Shown piece by piece: positions 11,561-37,873 of a DNA stretch of 41,444 nucleotides (the stretch's first letter is position 1; each line of letters opens with the position of its first letter). A program made the translations under genes and the position numbers. The notes beneath the pieces are model-generated. The model saw only the letters and a program-made list of their open reading frames with translations, was not told where the DNA came from and did no database searches. The stretch is from the IMG/VR virus record IMGVR_UViG_2563366870_000005; one strand, 5' to 3'. The stretch comes from a virus. Lineage: Duplodnaviria > Heunggongvirae > Uroviricota > Caudoviricetes.

Positions 11561-12706
11561 TTAGCGAACAACGTTAATCTGTACGTCAGCGTAATGAACC
11601 GCGCCTGCAAGTTTTATTGCAGCCTGAATCACCGGAGCCTTACGGGCTTCACGTTCTGATTGTGCCTGTTCATCCAGCGGCTGGGCGTATACGTAATAAC
11701 CTTTGGGCAGCGTGTCACCTGATGACAACTGGCCAAGGTCGCCCCCGTTCCATACGCCCGGAGCAATCAGTCCATTCTGAACGGCCTGATCCAGTGATTT
11801 TTCAACATTTGATAACAGTCGGGTAATACCGGCTTCAGTCTGGGGAACTTTCGTGGTGCTGGTATAAAGCAGGTTATAGAGGTTGGTCTGCACATAATTC
11901 TGTAACCAGTCCAGGCCGTGGCGTTCATCAAAGAAATCGCCGTTAGCCATCACTCCCTGCTGGAGGATAGCTGTATCATTCTGGTAGTACACGAACACAT
12001 TGCAGTTTTTTGCATCAAGTGCCGATGCCTGGCTGACTGTCAGTGTTTCATACCCGACACCCGGCTCCTGCTTAAACTTGAGCGTAATCGCGGTATTACT
12101 GCCATTGAAATTAACCGTGAATGCCCGGCCAAATGCAGATAACGCAGCGTATTTATTACCCGATGAATACTGAATAAAACTGCGTGAATATCCGGCGGTT
12201 TTCAGTTTTGATGCCAAATCATCGCTGGATGCAGTCTGCAGGCATTTCTCATCGCTTGTCGTAATCGCCAGAATACGGCTTACAGAAGAGGATTCGATCG
12301 CCGCAGCCACTTTCAGCCAGTCTGCATCCGGAATATCTTCATCGTCTGCAATCCCCAGCCCATACCATGAAGTATAATCGAGCATGGCATTCACAGCCTG
12401 CTCCAGCGTCTCAGGCGTGGCCTGTTCGCTGTCTCCCTTCGTTTTCACCCAACGACCAACAAAAACCTCCTGAGGTTTCGGTGATTGTGAGAAAAACACC
12501 TGCGCAGCCTTATATTCTGGTGATTCCACGCCAAAATCTTTTCCAATATCTTCCGCGGCAGAATAACGGCGAATGCGCTCACTTACCGGAATGATTGTGG
12601 ACGGGCCGAGAATGAGTAATGCACCAAAATTTCGCCCTGATGCTGCACGCGGCGACATGATCACATCAACATTAACAACGTTTGATACAGGCAAGCCCTG
12701 TGCCAT
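11561..12706 (-). CDS. Tail sheath protein
   Basis: 381-aa ORF preceding tube/chaperone/tape measure; size and position typical for a contractile sheath. Confidence 0.65.
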
Positions 12707-23188: not shown

Positions 23189-23289
23189 ACTTCCCACCTC
23201 CGCCATTACGGGGTGTTGTTGAAAGGCGGGCCCTGCGTATACGCCCGTAGGATTGGGTTATGAGCCGTCCTTCGGTGGGCCCTGAATAC

Positions 23290-23312
23290 AAAAAAAGTTC
23301 GCCATAGCGAAC
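23290..23312 (-). terminator. Rho-independent terminator upstream of the lysis genes (tR'-like)
   Basis: Minus strand: stem GTTCGC/GCGAAC with 4-nt loop followed by TTTTTTT; located between the candidate late promoter region and the holin. Confidence 0.65.
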
Positions 23313-23540
23313 CTTGTTAAATTTGTTAAAAAAGGAAGTTATTTAACATAATGTACGTTATAGGAACCACACGATCCCCGCTCGCAATAGATTTGCGATG
23401 AAAGGCCTATTTAATCAACTTAAGTGGTCCAGAATGACGAAATTCGAGTGAATAAAAGGTGCATAAAAAAGGGCAAAAACTGCATAGCGTTTTTTCGCAG
23501 CGAAAGCCCTGTTTTATTAACTTTTCCCCAGAATGGGGCA

Positions 23541-23566
23541 ATAAAAAAGGCCCCCTTGCGGAAGCC
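23541..23566 (-). terminator. Rho-independent terminator after the Q operon
   Basis: Minus strand: GGCTTCC-GCAA-GGGGGCC hairpin (7 bp incl. two G-U pairs, GCAA tetraloop) followed by TTTTTTATT; downstream of ORF 23634..23975. Confidence 0.55.
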
Positions 23567-23633
23567 TCTTCGTGATGAACTGTTTTCAACGGATATCAGG
23601 CTAATCGGCTTTTTGGAATTCCACAACTATTTT

Positions 23634-24006: not shown

Positions 24007-24429
24007 TTATGCCGCCGAGCAGCTCCTACTCAAAGTCCTGATAGCCTGAGGCTTTGACTGAACCGACTGATCCATTTCGAGCACCACATCCAGCATGGCT
24101 AAGCAACCGTCAATAAATCCCTCTGCCGCCTGAAGCCTCTTCAGAACGTGGGTGTGAGATACGCCGAGCTTCTCACCCATCGCCCGCACGGGCATGGCCT
24201 GGACGTAATGCCACTCAAGGAGCGTGCACAGATACGGATCTTTTTTCTTCAGGCAGCTCATAGCGGAGTTGATGATAAGTCCGTCATTGTCACTGCATTT
24301 CAGCCTTCCAGACTGCGTCGCGGGTAGCAGATTCTTAAACCCGGCTGCAACAGGAGGAAAGTAGACGCTACCACCTTCACTCGCTGCCCAGCCACCCCAG
24401 CGCTCTAAAACCTGTTGAATATTACGCAT
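24007..24429 (-). CDS. Q: Late gene antitermination protein Q-like
   Basis: 140-aa ORF upstream of the late promoter/terminator region and lysis cassette; Cys/His-containing C-terminal half typical of Q-family antiterminators. Confidence 0.7.
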   Translation of the reverse strand: MRNIQQVLERWGGWAASEGGSVYFPPVAAGFKNLLPATQSGRLKCSDNDGLIINSAMSCLKKKDPYLCTLLEWHYVQAMPVRAMGEKLGVSHTHVLKRLQAAEGFIDGCLAMLDVVLEMDQSVQSKPQAIRTLSRSCSAA

Positions 24430-24558
24430 AGCTCTGACCTCTACGTTTTGCTACGAAAAAATTTTCTGAGAACCACGTCTGTTTATCCGTGGGTGTGGAT
24501 AACGCAGTTCCGATTCGCATATTGCATGTATCAACATGCAAAAAGTTGCTAATGCGGA

Positions 24559-24746
24559 GTGGAACCACCTGCCCCCACCTGGAACCACCTTTTCCTAACC
24601 TTTCCCTCAATCGACTTATATATATGGGGTTTCTAGTAGAAAGGTGGTTCCAGTGGTTCCAGTGGTTCCACCCCGCTTGCCACAAGGTCTGCAAGGTGGA
24701 ACCACCTTCTCTTTTAGGTGGTTCCGCGTGGTTCCAGCGGTTCCCA
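24559..24746. repeat. Iteron array, candidate replication origin
   Basis: At least eight copies of a 9-10 bp motif (TGGAACCACC / GGTGGTTCCA) in both orientations: two direct copies 20 bp apart (24560-24589), an AT-rich block (24611-24640), three tandem inverted copies (24643-24670), and more at 24696-24746. Confidence 0.7.
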
Positions 24747-26900
24747 AACCTTGCATTTTTTCCCCCCAATTCGCCTTTGGGCACGCTTATACCCGCAATT
24801 TTGCAAAACATTACTAATTCGCATTTCTTCGCGTTTTCCGATGCGGTCAGGATTTAGCCCAATCGCATCACGCAAAACATCACTTGCGCGTAAAAATTCG
24901 CAATTTCGCGGAAGTTCATTAGTCATCAGGTCTGGCGTGTCGAGCCATTTCTCTACCGTTTCAAGCCAAGCATCCTTGATGGTGTACTGTTCATGGACAC
25001 TCGCTGCCAGTTGTTCAGCCTCACGGAACTGGATACCCCCCAGACGCTGAAACACCTCACGAGCCTCAGCCCAAAGTAAAAGGAGATCTCTTTTTATCGC
25101 TTTCACGTCGACTTTCGACACTTCCACGGGGAGCCAGCGACGGTTACCAGTCTTGTCCGCAAGGAATTCGTCCTCATTGGTGGTACCAACGAACACCAGG
25201 CGACGAGGAAACTGGGTGGCGAACTCCCGGTATTTCGGGATCCAGTTTTCGTGAGTACGCGTCACAAACGCTTTGATTGACTCCAGCTCTTTGGTATTAA
25301 GTCCGCGCAGTTCACCAATCTCTGCCACCAGCCGACCACGCATTTTTCGAGCGAGATCATCGTCTTTTTCGGCAAAAGAGATTTCAGTAAAAAACGCAGG
25401 ATCAGGGCTCAGTGCCTCCACTCCGGAAGACTTACCGCAGCCCTGCGGACCAACGAGGATCGGCACCATATCCGCTTTGATGCCTGGCTCCAGTACTCGC
25501 CCCGCCAACGCGGTCCACATGTACATAGACACCGCACGGGTATAAGGCGTGTCGGCTGTACCGAAGTGCGTATGGTAGAAACATTCGATGCGCGGCACGC
25601 CATCCCACTCCAGTCCGTTCAGCCAGGTGATCGCTGAATCGAATGGTTGTTCATCGGCTGCAAGTAACACCACATCGCGAATAAGTTCACGACCAACAGG
25701 TTTAAATCCCCGCTTTTCCATCGTGATGCGCAGGCGCGCATAATCCGCATCGGTGAATGCCCGCCATTGTCCGGATCCTGCAGGGGCAAACATGATTTCG
25801 TCGCGGAACTGGTCAAAGCGAATATCGATGTCCACAAAATCAGGGCGTACTACTGCTTTGGCTGCGTTGCTGATGGTTGCCTCGATACGCCCCCATTTAT
25901 CACGCTCGAAAGCAGGCAGCGGTAAAGGTTCCGCCACTTCGGTGCTGGTCAGATCTTCGAAATCGTCGTTGCGGATCCCGATGGCATTAAGGAAATCTCC
26001 GTCATCACGATGCGCACAACTGGCATGCAGGCATTTAAAATGCCCCTGCTCAAAGCCCGCGGTTCCCGCAGGAAAATAAACTGTGCTTGTTGGATCGCCC
26101 CCGCTACTGTGGCCGTCTTCAAACGGACAGCGGATATATCGTTCACCATTTGCGCCATCCAGCAGCGTCCAGCCATTGGCATCAAGATATTCAGCTGTAT
26201 CATCCGTCGCGCCGGGCGTGAATGCTGATCGGTCGCGCATCTTCGTGTTGCCCGCTTCGGTGGTTACCGACACAGGGAGTTGTTCAGCCAGGCGCTGCCA
26301 CAGCGTTTCAAGCTGCTCACCAGTAATAGCCGGAGGTTCATCCGGCAAACCGCCGTCCCATTCGATACGCGCGCCGCTGCTGTGCGTACCGCAGGCAACA
26401 AACTGCTGCCCGTTCGCCAGCAGCTCGATAATCCCCATATCGCCCGCCAGACGGTGGATGCGCTTACGGAAATCGCCGTCAACGGCCAGCAGGTACAGGC
26501 ATTTGTTACTGTTGGCGCGCCAGCGACGCGGCGGCAGCTCACCAAGTAGCTGCACCAGCGTTTTGCGAATATCGGCCTGGATATCTTCGTCTTCGCTGTC
26601 GCAGTCCAGCGCCAGCCAGCCATGGCCTGTACGCACGCAGATGCCATAATCCGGTTCATTCGACCAGCGGGCAAAATCATGCTCAGTAACAACATGACCG
26701 GTCCATTGAGCAATACCGGTGACCTGACGGTCCCGGTTATAGCGACTTGGCGTCTTACCCAGCGCTTTCAGTTTACTGTCAGGGGATATAGTCGCACCGG
26801 GGTTACATACAACTGGGAGAAGATGATCAGTTCTCCCCAATACCAGGTCGAAATGAAACCACTCATCAGGCGTAGCTCCCCATGGTTTGCTATCGGACAT
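24714..26900 (-). CDS. DNA primase, P4 alpha-like (N-terminal primase-polymerase domain, Cys/His zinc motif, C-terminal Walker-A NTPase domain)
   Basis: 728-aa ORF; zinc-binding-like motif (CPFEDGH ... FKCLHASCAH); Walker A GPQGCGKSS; size and architecture of phage/plasmid P4-family primases; iterons overlap its 3' end. Confidence 0.75.
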   Translation of the reverse strand: MSDSKPWGATPDEWFHFDLVLGRTDHLLPVVCNPGATISPDSKLKALGKTPSRYNRDRQVTGIAQWTGHVVTEHDFARWSNEPDYGICVRTGHGWLALDCDSEDEDIQADIRKTLVQLLGELPPRRWRANSNKCLYLLAVDGDFRKRIHRLAGDMGIIELLANGQQFVACGTHSSGARIEWDGGLPDEPPAITGEQLETLWQRLAEQLPVSVTTEAGNTKMRDRSAFTPGATDDTAEYLDANGWTLLDGANGERYIRCPFEDGHSSGGDPTSTVYFPAGTAGFEQGHFKCLHASCAHRDDGDFLNAIGIRNDDFEDLTSTEVAEPLPLPAFERDKWGRIEATISNAAKAVVRPDFVDIDIRFDQFRDEIMFAPAGSGQWRAFTDADYARLRITMEKRGFKPVGRELIRDVVLLAADEQPFDSAITWLNGLEWDGVPRIECFYHTHFGTADTPYTRAVSMYMWTALAGRVLEPGIKADMVPILVGPQGCGKSSGVEALSPDPAFFTEISFAEKDDDLARKMRGRLVAEIGELRGLNTKELESIKAFVTRTHENWIPKYREFATQFPRRLVFVGTTNEDEFLADKTGNRRWLPVEVSKVDVKAIKRDLLLLWAEAREVFQRLGGIQFREAEQLAASVHEQYTIKDAWLETVEKWLDTPDLMTNELPRNCEFLRASDVLRDAIGLNPDRIGKREEMRISNVLQNCGYKRAQRRIGGKKCKVWEPLEPRGTT

Positions 26901-26903
26901 GGG

Positions 26904-27116
26904 TTAAGCCTTTTTATCGTTTTGTGAGCCATACAACAGCCAATTAGGGTCGCAATCCAATGCTATAGACATTTCAAGAAGATAACGTGGCCGAGCAATA
27001 ACACCACTTTCAATTCTGTTTATTGCCTGCTGGCTCACTCCTGTGAGCTCAGCCAACGTAACTTGCGTCATTTTGAGTTCTTTACGTCGTTCTTTTACTC
27101 GGGTCGCTAAGGTCAT
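26904..27116 (-). CDS. Cro-like HTH transcriptional regulator (XRE family)
   Basis: HTH motif (MTQVTLAELTGVSQQAINRIESG); preferred start ATG 27114-27116 with SD GAGGTGA; divergent from the CI-like gene and heads the minus-strand operon. Confidence 0.75.
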   Translation of the reverse strand: MTLATRVKERRKELKMTQVTLAELTGVSQQAINRIESGVIARPRYLLEMSIALDCDPNWLLYGSQNDKKA

Positions 27117-27174
27117 TGCTTTCACCTCATACAATTTTAGTGGTATTTAGCAACAACAAACGAGGTTTGTCAAA

Positions 27175-31500: not shown

Positions 31501-33003
31501 GTGTCAACTTTGAGAATCGGTATGGAAATCCAAGAGTTTGTAAGTCACTATAAAAACCACCCTGTTCTATTCATTGGAACAGGATTTAGCCTACGGTATC
31601 TAGAAAACTCATTTAGCTGGGATGGTCTTCTTTTGAGTGTCGCAATGGAACTAACCGGTAATGCTGAGTTTTACTACGATTTGAAAGCTGAAAGCCTAGA
31701 AGGTGACGACTATCGATATGATATCTTAGCTACAAAACTTGAAGATATTTTTAATAAAAAGCTGGCAGAAGATCGTAACGGTAAGTTCAAAGACATCAAT
31801 GATGTTTTCTATGAGCACATGAAAAAAGGAAAAAAACTAAGTCGATTCAAAATTTATTTAACTTCAATACTTAAAGACCTAAAGATAAAAGAGTCAATGA
31901 TGGAGGAAATAAACAGCTTAATAAAAACAAGAAAAAACATAGGCTCCATCATTACAACAAACTACGACCAACTCGTAGAGAACATCTTCGAATTTAACCC
32001 ACTGATTGGTAACAACATTCTTTTAAGTAACCCATACGGTTCAGTTTACAAAATACATGGCTGTGTTAGTGATCCTAACAACATAATTATCACAGGTGAA
32101 GACTACGCAAACTTCGACAATAAATATGAGTTAATTCGCGCTCAATTACTCTCAATATTCATACACAACCCTATCATATTTATAGGGTATAGTATTAGCG
32201 ATAAAAACATTAAGTACTTATTAAAAACCATATTCTCATACGTTGACTTAAATACCGAACTTGCAAAAAGGATAAAAGATAATTTTCTTTTGGTTGAATA
32301 CGAAAAAGACAGCATGTCAACTGAAATTACGGAGCATGACATAGATATAGAAGGCATGTCTATCATAAGAATAAACAAAATAAAAACAAACAATTACAAA
32401 GCTGTATATGATGCCATCTCGGGACTAGTTTTGCCAGTATCCGCAATGGACATAAGAAAGGTTCAAAAAGTTTGGAGTACCATCAAAAGTGGTGGTGAGA
32501 TAAAGGTTAAAATTACAGAAAATTTAGATGAACTTCGCAATGATGAAATGGTCATTGCTGTTGGTTCAGAAAGAACCGTACAATATGTTTATCAAACAAA
32601 ATCTGAAATGATACAGAACTATTTTAAAATAGTTGACGAAGCAAACTCTCAGCTTATCGCATTACTGAATAAGCAAACCATAGCTAATAGCGAACACTTT
32701 CCAATATACGCTTTTAGTTCTATCTGCCCTGAACTAGAAAATACCGAGACATACAGAAAACGGCAGCTAGATAAAATCATTGGTAACCTTTCTCGAATTA
32801 AAACATGTAAGAGTGAGGCTGTGTCTATTGATGAAATACTAAAAGAAACGAAAGAGTATAAAGTTGCTAACACGATTATGTATTGCGTACTAAACGATAC
32901 TATTTCATTGAAACAACTACGAGATTATTTAACAAAACCAGGGCATAAAATTGATACCCAATACAGGCGACTTTTATGCTTGTATGATTATTTATCATAT
33001 TAA
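31501..33003 (+). CDS. SIR2-like (ThsA-like NADase) domain protein with uncharacterised C-terminal domain; candidate anti-phage defence gene
   Basis: N-terminal motifs in ThsA order: VLFIGTGFS, IITTNYDQLVE, KIHGCVSD, IIFIGYSISDKN. GTG start with SD AGAGG 6 nt upstream. Lys/Asn/Ile-rich and visibly AT-rich compared with neighbours; own terminator. Confidence 0.7.
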   Translation: MSTLRIGMEIQEFVSHYKNHPVLFIGTGFSLRYLENSFSWDGLLLSVAMELTGNAEFYYDLKAESLEGDDYRYDILATKLEDIFNKKLAEDRNGKFKDINDVFYEHMKKGKKLSRFKIYLTSILKDLKIKESMMEEINSLIKTRKNIGSIITTNYDQLVENIFEFNPLIGNNILLSNPYGSVYKIHGCVSDPNNIIITGEDYANFDNKYELIRAQLLSIFIHNPIIFIGYSISDKNIKYLLKTIFSYVDLNTELAKRIKDNFLLVEYEKDSMSTEITEHDIDIEGMSIIRINKIKTNNYKAVYDAISGLVLPVSAMDIRKVQKVWSTIKSGGEIKVKITENLDELRNDEMVIAVGSERTVQYVYQTKSEMIQNYFKIVDEANSQLIALLNKQTIANSEHFPIYAFSSICPELENTETYRKRQLDKIIGNLSRIKTCKSEAVSIDEILKETKEYKVANTIMYCVLNDTISLKQLRDYLTKPGHKIDTQYRRLLCLYDYLSY

Positions 33004-35672: not shown

Positions 35673-35955
35673 ACGTGAAAACCTAATCGAGAAGCATCTC
35701 GTCGCCGAAGTGAAAAAGGCTGGTGGGGTCGCCTTTAAGTTCATATCACCTGGTCGCCGCTCGGTACCAGATCGCATTGTTCTGCTACCCGGCGGCCGTC
35801 TCGTTTTCGTTGAATGTAAATCTCCCGGCAAGCCACCACGGCCTGACCAGTTGCGCGAGCATGAACGTCTGCGAAAGCTGGGCTTTACCGTGGTAGTACT
35901 GGATAGCAAAAATCTGGAGGGGATATTGTGCGGGGAGCCTATTACAACGAAATAG
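35662..35955 (+). CDS. VRR-NUC domain nuclease
   Basis: Motif PDRIVLLPGGRLVFVECKSPGK (D ... E-x-K) typical of VRR-NUC PD-(D/E)XK nucleases; ATG 35662 overlapping upstream stop; track start 35635 probably too far upstream. Confidence 0.65.
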   Translation: MAYERENLIEKHLVAEVKKAGGVAFKFISPGRRSVPDRIVLLPGGRLVFVECKSPGKPPRPDQLREHERLRKLGFTVVVLDSKNLEGILCGEPITTK

Positions 35956-36941
35956 ACCCTAACGCAGCACAATGGCTGCGTAACCTTATTGCTGCGGGTC
36001 ATATCGCCCCGGGTGAAGTTGATGAAAGGAGTATCGAAGATGTCGCACCAGACGACTTGCGCGGATTCACACAGTGCCATTTCTTCGCCGGGATCGGCGT
36101 CTGGTCTTATGCTCTGCGTCTGGCCGGATGGCCGGATAACAAACCGGTCTGGACAGGAAGTTGCCCGTGCCAGCCTTTCAGCTCGGCTGGTAAAGGCGCT
36201 GGGTTTGATGACGAGCGGCACCTATGGCCAGCACTATTCCACCTCATCAGCGAGCGACGCCCTAAGCTGGTATTTGGCGAACAGGTTGCGGGAGTCAATG
36301 CCTGGTTCGATCTTGTACAAACTGACGTGGAGGCAGTGGACTACGCCTTTGGGCTTGTCCCGTTTCCGGCTGCGGGCGTCGGTGCCCCGCATATCCGAGA
36401 TAGAGCGTATTGGGTGGCCGACGCCAGCGGCGAGCGACCACAGCGGTGGCGAAAGCGCCTCAATAGCATTGAGGAAGATGTCTGGAGATCGTCGACCGTC
36501 CGGCAACACGCTACACAGCTCCCTGCGGGATTTTGCTCACCTGGCGGGGTGGTACACCCCAACCTGCAACACAAACCCACAGCCGGAGACAAAACGCGGT
36601 CTAGAAACCTTAGCGGGGCTATCCAGATTAGCGGGATGGCCGACAGTGACGACGGTCGACAACAACCAAGTTCGTGGCGAGGGCGCAGCGGCCAATCATA
36701 CCAAACGGGGAACGACCCTCGGCGGCCCAATACGATTAACAGCTGCTGGGATGATGCTGACTGGCTCCTCTGCCGGGATGGTCGCTGGCGGCCAGTTGAA
36801 TCCGGCACATTCCCGTTGGCTCATGGGATTACCTCCAGAGTGGGACGACTGCGCGCCTACGGCAACGCGATAGTCGCACCAGCTGCCGCAACATTCATCC
36901 GCTCGTTTATGGAATGCGCAGGATACGACCTCATCTGTTGA
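35928..36941 (+). CDS. DNA (cytosine-5)-methyltransferase, orphan
   Basis: Motif I FFAGIGV, motif IV PCQPFS (catalytic Cys), C-terminal RAYGNAIV; GTG start with SD GGAGGGG; no adjacent restriction endonuclease recognised. Confidence 0.75.
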
Positions 36942-36943
36942 TA

Positions 36944-37873
36944 TTATGGGTTAGGTAATGCACGATTATTAAAATTATCAATAATTTGCAACGCCGCCGT
37001 TTGTCCGCCAGCCAATAGCCCTGCTTTACTCAGAAGGTATTTAGGGAATTTGGTTGGTAAATAAACCGCACGAAGCCAGTGCCTGAATACAGCTAAAGCA
37101 TTATCAGGGTATGCATAGACCATTTGGGGATTACTTGCGGATTGGTTGAATTCTTCAGGGTAATAGTGCTGGCAGCGTTGTCTTGGGCCAATCGTCGCAT
37201 CGTAGTTGGAAGAAGACCAGTAGCGAGCCCAATGCTGGCCCACACTGATATCCGGTACAGTGTACTGGTTTACTGCTAATCCAGCATGGATGAGGTCTAC
37301 CATTAAACCGGCAATTTCATTGAATACAATGAAGTGTCCAGCAGGAACCGAGTTTGCCCCATGCATGATTGACACACGAGAGTGGTAATGACGCCAAGGG
37401 TCATCAGGTATGTAGCCAAGCGCTGTATAGATGTAACCACGCATACCCGCACGGGATAGCTCGCGGAAAAACTGTAGCGCAGTAGGAGTTGCAGCACTTT
37501 GAGATACAAATGCGTAGAACTCCAGAATAGCCATACAGACTACTTCTGGGTACGCATAATGGACTGACCCATCTTTGTTGATTGGGATATAAAGAGTCGG
37601 CTCATTATATTGCTCACGCTGTAAATATGAGCTGATAAACTCCATACGCCCTCGAGCGAAAACTCCGTGGCGGAAGCTCTCTTCCCACTCTCGAGAAATA
37701 TCCGCGATATTACTGCGATGCACCCCGCAAATCCTGGCCAGCCCATTTTGCGTAAGGTAGGAGATCCCGTTCTGAAGAACCCCCATTTCTATTTCGTTAA
37801 AAACCCCCTCGGTACTAACACCTAAGTCCAGTACTTGTTGGGGTGCGGGTTGCTGACCACCAAATTCACTCAT
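36944..37873 (-). CDS. Hypothetical HTH-domain protein, opposite strand to flanking genes
   Basis: 309-aa ORF with ATG and SD AAGGA; N-terminal HTH-like motif (LTQNGLARICGVHRSNIADI) plus ~220-aa unrecognised C-terminal domain; convergent with the methyltransferase (stops 2 bp apart). Confidence 0.6.
   Translation of the reverse strand: MSEFGGQQPAPQQVLDLGVSTEGVFNEIEMGVLQNGISYLTQNGLARICGVHRSNIADISREWEESFRHGVFARGRMEFISSYLQREQYNEPTLYIPINKDGSVHYAYPEVVCMAILEFYAFVSQSAATPTALQFFRELSRAGMRGYIYTALGYIPDDPWRHYHSRVSIMHGANSVPAGHFIVFNEIAGLMVDLIHAGLAVNQYTVPDISVGQHWARYWSSSNYDATIGPRQRCQHYYPEEFNQSASNPQMVYAYPDNALAVFRHWLRAVYLPTKFPKYLLSKAGLLAGGQTAALQIIDNFNNRALPNP

Follow-up and report, generated by a model that had tools for sequence, protein, structure and literature searches.

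What is the function of a cluster of short repeats that reaches into the 3' end of a phage primase gene, and which part of which protein would recognize it? The question is raised by a locus in the window, as we call the whole stretch of 41,444 bp that was analysed. An Escherichia-type chromosome carries it as an integrated prophage, which represents a complete temperate phage. It has terminase, portal, head, tail, baseplate and lysis genes as well as an integrase and PolA, and near-identical E. coli prophages are adjoined by yfhL/acpS. On the minus strand, the gene for a Cro-like HTH protein (26904-27134) is followed by the gene for a 728-aa primase-helicase, a gap of 284 bp, the gene for the antiterminator Q (24007-24429; Pfam Phage_antitermQ, E 5e-42), and the holin, lysozyme, terminase, head and tail genes. 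The divergent arm encodes an S24/HTH repressor, DUF2800, DUF2815, a family-A DNA polymerase, VRR-NUC, SNF2 and the integrase. The repeat cluster sits in the early transcript, with the primase gene on one side and Q on the other.

We conclude, with a probability of about 0.8, that this complete temperate phage has its vegetative replication origin at 24560-24746, and that the origin belongs to the self-loading helicase type. An iteron-type origin had been proposed for this site in the initial annotation, and that reading is supported here by homology of the encoded protein to SaPI Rep, by a predicted winged helix, by a repeat layout of the SaPI/PICI kind and by co-variation of the wing with the repeat; iteron binding, melting and origin firing we infer from homology and architecture.

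Architecture of the repeat cluster

Ten copies of the 10-bp unit TGGAACCACC, eight good and two degenerate, were read in both orientations at 24560-24746. This agrees with the earlier claim of at least eight copies arranged as direct and inverted groups around an AT-rich block. When up to one mismatch was allowed, TGGAACCACC matched 11 times in the 41,444 bp, and eight of these 11 matches lie inside 24560-24736; the expectation was 2.7 ± 1.5, and none of 100 shuffles reached 11. The core GGAACCR occurs nine times in 24561-24744, compared to 11 times across the other 41 kb. A sliding scan identified 24560-24746 as the densest short-repeat cluster of the window (10 copies, against at most seven and usually two to four elsewhere). 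A second cluster of TGGAACCACC is absent from the 41-kb window, which has lone one-mismatch matches at 12519, 12732 and 25179.

The distal flank consists of three plus-strand copies at a pitch of 10 bp: TGGAACCACC (24560-24569), the degenerate TGCCCCCACC (24570-24579) and TGGAACCACC (24580-24589). It is oriented opposite to a tandem triple on the minus strand, in which the plus-strand letters GTGGTTCCA occur three times at a pitch of 9 bp (24643-24652, 24652-24661 and 24661-24670; TRF period 9, 3.0 copies, 100%). Between these two sets of three lies the AT-rich centre (24590-24642), a putative unwinding element with a GC content of 0.35-0.375 compared to approximately 0.50 locally; it contains TATATATAT at 24617-24625 and is bordered on one side by the tandem triple. 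The proximal group is made up of three direct copies on the minus strand, the strand of the primase gene, with the sequences TGGGAACCGC, TGGAACCACG and CGGAACCACC. These copies occupy 24717-24726, 24727-24736 and 24737-24746, the one at 24737-24746 being the second degenerate copy, and the group is closed by a single inverted copy of TGGAACCACC on the plus strand (24697-24706).

No promoter or terminator consensus was detected on the minus (sense) strand of the gap between primase gene and Q, and the lone terminator-like match in it is the repeat palindrome on the plus strand. A hidden gene was considered and rejected: a 129-aa ORF at 24422-24811 (minus strand) and the other ORFs of the gap are broken in three related loci (L001, L002 and L003), and no ORF of the gap remains open across repeat types. 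GC skew and cumulative skew switch at the cI/cro divergence and track the direction of transcription, and are therefore uninformative on the position of the origin.

Other elements were observed on the Q side of the cluster. A palindrome, TTGCATGT-ATCA-ACATGCAA, is located at 24522-24541 and was scored as a terminator on neither the plus nor the minus strand; most Q-linked relatives keep a hairpin-capable TTGCA...TGCAA whose stem differs in sequence. A perfect DnaA box, TTATCCACA (24494-24502, minus strand), one of two perfect boxes in the window, lies within the inverted repeat TTATCC-N8-GGATAA (24483-24502), 58 bp past the last repeat and approximately 65 bp ahead of the start of Q. This box is partly conserved, being perfect in the E. 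coli prophage FDAARGOS_144 and carrying one or two mismatches in loci with other repeat types.

The primase-helicase is related to SaPI Rep

The gene at 24714-26900 (minus strand) was assigned as a primase-helicase-initiator of 728 aa on the basis of Pfam, PHROG, PDB and AF2 with Foldseek. A search with its N-terminal 400 aa returned Prim-Pol (PF09250, E 3.6e-10) at approximately residues 53-185. The protein also has a Zn-like CxxH..CxxC..H segment and, at residues 427-639, a VapE/SF3 helicase domain (Pfam VapE-like_dom, E 2.3e-60), and its PHROG labels are DNA primase and DNA helicase. The sole sequence relative in the PDB found by phmmer was 7pds_A, a SaPI Rep (E 8.2e-34, residues 393-657). 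The same structure was the top Foldseek match of the AF2 model (E 6e-6), followed by winged-helix proteins such as Stf76, Fur, PadR and FOXO3a. By sequence comparison, the protein is homologous to the SaPI Rep initiator-helicases.

AF2 predicted a C-terminal winged helix at residues 644-721 with pLDDT values above 90. Its helices span residues 644-653, 672-680 and 689-701 and its strands residues 704-711 and 714-721; the helix at 689-701 corresponds to the recognition helix and the two strands form the wing. The codons of wing strand beta-3, K714-P721 (KKCKVWEP), occupy 24738-24761 on the minus strand. The last seven residues of the protein are predicted to be disordered.

From these features, the following mechanism can be proposed. 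An early rightward-type operon, comprising the Cro-like gene and the primase-helicase gene, would supply the 728-aa protein, in which an AEP Prim-Pol domain, a VapE/SF3 hexameric helicase and a winged helix are combined. The winged helix would bind the 10-bp repeats, and the opposed sets (three copies at a pitch of 9 bp and three inverse copies at a pitch of 10 bp) would place one hexamer on each side of the 53-bp centre. The AT-rich centre would then melt, and the two helicase hexamers would load in opposite directions without a separate loader. Priming would be carried out by the Prim-Pol domain, and elongation by the family-A polymerase module of the phage (PolA, the SSB-like DUF2815 protein, the DUF2800 nuclease, SNF2 and VRR-NUC). 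Wing strand beta-3 (GK-x-x-[KR]-x-[W/F/Y], residues 714-719) would be the main determinant of repeat specificity. The proximal 3+1 group, at the end of the gene, may serve to increase affinity or have a control function.

Comparison with known replication origins

SaPI Reps are self-loading initiator-helicases whose C-terminal winged helix binds 6-12 iterons directly 3' of rep, and the SaPI origin has an AT-rich centre with at least two iterons per side in opposite directions (PMC9371898). In SaPI5, a primase is fused to Rep (PMC9371898). The PICIs of E. coli share this origin plan, and a pri-rep-ori segment drives plasmid replication (PMC6092414).

At the sequence level, the window shows all features of this plan, and it resembles these Pri-Rep-ori systems (SaPI1 Rep, SaPI5 PriRep5 and EcCICFT073 of E. 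coli) in several respects. The VapE/SF3 helicase cores are homologous, PriRep5 is likewise a primase-helicase fusion, and a C-terminal winged helix, predicted in the case of the window, is common to both. As in SaPI/PICI origins, which have 6-12 short repeats 3' of the gene, the window has 10 repeats in this position, in opposed sets around an AT-rich centre. However, SaPIs and PICIs are satellites, whereas the window is a temperate phage of approximately 39 kb with its own structural, lysis and PolA genes. Its repeats are 10 bp long instead of 5-6 bp, and it has an additional proximal 3+1 group that is able to enter the ORF. Furthermore, its variants differ in about five wing residues, in contrast to the whole divergent C-terminal domain in SaPI/PICI. 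The window is thus a PICI-like replicon in function, but not a PICI.

The plan was described as exclusive to PICI satellites, and complete phages with it were explicitly not expected (PMC6092414). The phage family of the window carries the plan and is therefore a counter-example to this exclusivity. While this kind of origin is already known, its occurrence in complete temperate phages of enterobacteria is new, and it bears on where satellite replicons arose. In addition, a probable origin and its initiator are now known for a prophage family that occurs in the Yersinia phages YeP4-6 and in about 2-3% of complete E. coli genomes; the surrounding 2.9 kb of the repeat cluster were found in 145 of 5,426 such genomes.

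The initial annotation had likened the locus to P4 ori/crr. This likeness stands as a functional analogy and fails as homology. P4 alpha, like the protein of the window, combines primase, SF3-type helicase and C-terminal origin-binding domain in one polypeptide, and binds 8-bp repeats, TGTTCACC, in both orientations; a repeat cluster, crr, likewise lies directly 3' of its gene. However, BLASTP between the two proteins gave E 0.7, the domains of alpha are Zn-ribbon, Toprim, D5_N and Pox_D5 rather than Prim-Pol and VapE, and the two share just a sub-threshold DUF5906 match. P4 also has two separated cis regions, ori and crr (NC_001609), whereas the window has a single cluster.

The P4 arrangement nonetheless provides the alternative that survives best. 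The cluster could be a crr-like auxiliary element in cis that replication depends on or that controls copy number by titrating or handcuffing the initiator, with strand opening and first priming taking place elsewhere. In the P4 record, crr is directly 3' of alpha and has type-1 repeats in both orientations, while ori lies 2.1 kb upstream of alpha; moreover, the proximal 3+1 copies of the window have no obvious role in a simple model with two hexamers. We consider this alternative improbable, because the window holds no second cluster of TGGAACCACC and because the cluster itself is a complete SaPI/PICI origin plan with an AT-rich centre between opposed sets. In addition, the protein is a homologue of SaPI Rep and not of P4 alpha.

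An origin at 24560-24746 can also be compared with more distant systems. In lambda, phi80, 82 and P22, the specificity region of O is coupled to the iterons, and these ori-specificity types are swapped between phages. As in lambdoid O/ori-lambda, the origin of the window would lie in an early pR-type transcript and overlaps the initiator gene, albeit at its 3' end and not mid-gene as in lambda O. Unlike lambda, the window has no O/P homologues, and its initiator is itself helicase and primase, so that no P-like loading of DnaB is implied. SV40 large T antigen and papillomavirus E1 are SF3 helicase-initiators; at their origins, short inverted repeats border an element that melts readily, and two hexamers assemble on these repeats. 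SaPI Rep has been likened to both (PMC9371898). They differ from the window in belonging to eukaryotic viruses, in the fold of the origin-binding domain and its position N-terminal to the helicase, and in having no fused primase. Iteron plasmids of the RepA/pi/TrfA kind have direct iterons of 17-22 bp, a WH1-WH2 Rep, host DnaA boxes and DnaB loading. In contrast, the repeats of the window are 10 bp long and in both orientations, the candidate binder is a helicase-primase, and one perfect but only partly conserved DnaA box lies 58 bp off.

The layout is conserved while the repeat sequence switches

Related loci were gathered from genomes (22), IMG/VR (80) and metagenomes (80), the metagenomes being scanned with a 26-sequence alignment. 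At least six copies of some 8-mer were present in 85 of 86 distinct downstream regions of close relatives (median 9), compared to 4 of 254 control windows. A constant plan was seen in about 100 related prophages and phages: two or three direct copies, one inverted copy, three tandem copies at a 9-bp pitch, the AT-rich centre, and two or three inverted copies. Counted from the codon of the wing aromatic residue, the direct copies are at +11 and +21 and the inverted copy, which is kept in nearly all relatives, at +41 nt. After approximately 35 bp follow the three direct copies (9-bp pitch), about 65 bp of AT-rich sequence and the two or three inverted copies (pitch about 10 bp). Of 69 metagenomic relatives, 42 show the layout, with identities over the 200 C-terminal residues as low as approximately 35%. 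The isolated Yersinia phage YeP4 has the same repeat plan; it was reached via the protein only, as a nucleotide search with the origin region against sequenced phages gave no match.

The initial annotation had called for a comparison of the repeats in related prophages. This comparison revealed that the repeat sequence switches in concert under a constant layout: at least 12 types were distinguished, a change of type affects all copies at once, and neither the AT-rich block nor the flanks change with it. When three E. coli prophages were aligned with the window (alignment A1), 2013C-4465 had the same repeat as the window (TGGAACCACC), and another repeat was found at the same positions in FDAARGOS_144 (TGTACCAACC) and Sx181 (TGTTACCACC). 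The block CGACTTATATATATGGGGTT (24612-24631) in the AT-rich centre stays constant across repeat types in this alignment and in a second alignment, which covers 15 types. According to alignment A1, the exchangeable specificity cassette is approximately 240 bp long (24518-24758), with the palindrome described above at its distal edge; phages that have unlike repeat types but are otherwise 95-99% identical differ in this stretch alone. For example, FDAARGOS_144 and the window are 95.4% identical across 2.9 kb and about 75% identical at 24430-24800 (371 bp).

A different AT-rich centre was observed in the related loci L101, L103 and L187 (Yersinia phage YeP4, 2260-2450, minus strand), where it is another module (AGATTACAGAAACGACTATATAAGG...). 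In these three loci, the downstream gene is not Q, and the repeat layout is nonetheless retained. Judging by these loci, it seems that the AT-rich centre can be swapped on its own, separately from the repeats.

The position of the cluster suggests a second alternative, in which the repeats would be an operator or roadblock array that times read-through into Q, bound by the primase tail or another factor and with no origin function. The array does lie between the primase gene and Q in the transcript, in a gap without terminator or promoter consensus, and the conserved palindrome and the DnaA box are located between array and Q. This reading is very unlikely, since a gene other than Q comes next in several loci and the array is still found behind the primase gene (YeP4, L007, L101, L103, L104 and L107). 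Moreover, identical Q, Cro and cI proteins are found beside different repeat types, and origins that were defined by experiment have a matching architecture and a homologous initiator. The array may still have a regulatory side-effect.

A wing strand as candidate determinant of repeat specificity

Each repeat type goes with its own motif after the conserved Gly-Lys in wing strand 714-721. The repeat TGGAACCACC is accompanied by the wing GKK[CS]K[VIL]W, TGTAACCACC by GKV[QLCS][RK]VW, TGTTACCACC by GKLMKVW, TGTAGCCACC by GKMTKAW, TGTCCCCACC by GKKQRIW and TGTACCCACC by GKMTRIW. The wing is GK[MV][TV]RIF with TGTACCAACC, GKKMRIF with TGTCCCAACC, GKQQR[VI]F with TAGACAACC, GKQIRVW with TAGACCACC and GKSQRVY with TGTAACAACC. 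Wing residues 715-719 (GK-xx-[KR]-x-[WFY]) are the only protein feature that tracks the repeat type. When the mutual information with repeat type was computed for each alignment column of 70 distinct primases, it peaked at residues 716 (0.82) and 715 (0.77), compared to a mean of 0.02-0.07 for residues 1-680. The primases of the window and FDAARGOS_144 are 98% identical and differ only past K714. The same type also recurs on a distant backbone, since a Photorhabdus locus (L024) with 73% identity has GKKCKVWE together with GGAACCAC. The association is no coding artefact, because none of the repeats extends into codons 715-718 (24747-24758).

In the two cleanest pairs, with backbones more than 99.8% identical, divergence starts 4 and 13 codons ahead of the aromatic residue, inside the wing hairpin; crossover mapping is informative only in such pairs, as background divergence hides the boundary elsewhere. 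The recognition helix (689-701) is invariant in types 1-8, which would be unusual if the winged helix read DNA canonically.

In 12 of 14 types, base 7 of the repeat goes with residue 719, being C if this residue is W and A if F or Y takes its place. Four minimal pairs illustrate this relation: QIRVW/QQRVF, KQRIW/KMRIF, MTRIW/MTRIF and VQRVW/SQRVY. There are two exceptions, both distant loci, namely L193 (GKVCRVW with TGTAACAACC) and L225, and owing to them we lowered a strict code of W to C and F or Y to A to a tendency. The wing VLKVW was found with both GTAACCAC and GTATCCAC arrays. A separate specificity for type 4 (GTATCCAC) was rejected, since its arrays mix in GTAACCAC copies and share the VLKVW wing; by these sequences, type 4 probably has the same specificity as type 2.

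Candidate repeat binders were compared across types as well. Identical Cro, cI, Q, hyp113, holin, lysozyme, TerS, TerL, portal, hyp300, DUF2800 and DUF2815 proteins occur beside different repeat types, which rules out Cro, cI, Q or TerS as the binder. PolA and the primase body were not excluded by this identical-protein test, and only the per-column association speaks against both.

On these alignments, we infer that residues 715-719 are the determinant of repeat specificity. A more specific proposal, to which we give even odds, is that this five-residue wing strand, and not the invariant recognition helix, reads the variable half of the iteron, near to one residue per base, and thereby defines at least 12 orthogonal origins; at base 7, C would be matched to W and A to F/Y, and Lys 715 would go with G/C-rich bases 3-5. 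Since the wing codons adjoin the repeats, determinant and target move together as a cassette of approximately 240 bp, although for the same reason linkage alone would also yield an association between wing and repeat. If the proposal is true, this cassette carries both lock and key, and at least 12 mutually orthogonal origins are exchanged among enterobacterial phages; such orthogonality would perhaps keep prophages and satellites resident in the same host from cross-activating or hijacking an origin.

The most improbable alternative of all is that the repeats are an origin whose reader is the invariant recognition helix in combination with a factor of the host or an unlinked one of the phage, and that the differences in the tail hitch-hike with cassette exchange: linkage is indeed expected from wing codons that abut the repeats, the W/C rule has its exceptions, VLKVW accompanies two arrays, and a possible unidentified specificity factor has been raised for SaPI1 Rep, which discriminates poorly in vitro (PMC9371898), but a concerted change of all copies requires an altered reader, every other protein tested within ±10 kb is unchanged across different types, the cleanest pairs cross over upstream of residue 715 and never between wing and repeats, the four minimal pairs tie one residue to one base, and GTATCCAC arrays mixed with GTAACCAC copies are consistent with a single tolerant reader.

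A natural series of specificity swaps that is confined to the cassette at 24518-24758 is also new. With at least 12 repeat/wing variants on near-identical backbones, it represents a natural experiment on origin recognition by a self-loading helicase. The SaPI structures left this recognition open, and the variant series could show how it works; it is also usable for building orthogonal replicons.

Overlap of the repeats with the end of the ORF

The ORF at 24714-26900 (minus strand) ends in ...KKCKVWEPLEPRGTT / ...GGKKCKVWEPLEPRGTT before its stop codon. Codons W719-T728 correspond to 24717-24746 and thus to the final three repeat copies, so that the earlier statement that the last three copies lie inside the primase ORF and encode WEPLEPRGTT is borne out by the codon positions. 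In most relatives, however, the ORF stops three codons past the aromatic residue, with the stop codon within or touching the first repeat (e.g., G-TAA-CCAC); in the same register, these short-tailed relatives have two copies starting at the stop codon. When the repeat offers no in-frame stop, as in the type of the window, the ORF extends 8-10 codons further. The repeat-encoded tail, EPLEPRGTT, is variable in length, frameshifted at some loci and predicted to be disordered. Since, in addition, most relatives stop at the first repeat, the overlap between ORF and repeats is incidental. The functionally interesting adjacency is that of the wing codons and the repeats rather than the overlap.

Two IMG/VR loci (L037 and L089) have a frameshift after ...WEPLEP, by which the tail PKREGGSTLQAL replaces RGTT while the repeats are intact. 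This is natural evidence that the repeat-encoded tail is dispensable. A different irregularity was seen in two Klebsiella proteins, P0032 and P0098, which are annotated as antitermination protein Q (PF06323) and match the C-terminal region of the primase with 85-90% identity over 25-55% of a 200-aa query. Either gene fusion or miscalling of ORFs that span the primase end and Q may account for them.

Accessory genes and a further intergenic region

Other observations concern the remainder of the window. A 427-bp region between hyp113 and holin (23207-23633) has no ORF that matches an annotated gene of the near-identical E. coli prophages, its ORFs being short mechanical ones of 45-76 aa. It is the expected place for a Q-dependent late promoter with qut and terminator.

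At 31501-33003 (plus strand), a 500-aa SIR2-domain protein is encoded within an island with a GC content of 0.37 that is inserted in the replication arm. PADLOC assigned it to PDC-S25, a candidate system (E 4e-158), with weaker matches to ThsA. As this gene was found in just four related loci, it probably represents defence cargo carried by the prophage. A C5 cytosine DNA methylase gene (35928-36941, plus strand) adjoins the gene for a BstA-family abortive-infection protein (36944-37873, minus strand; PADLOC BstA, E 2.5e-110). Both are located between VRR-NUC and SNF2 and represent variable accessory genes.
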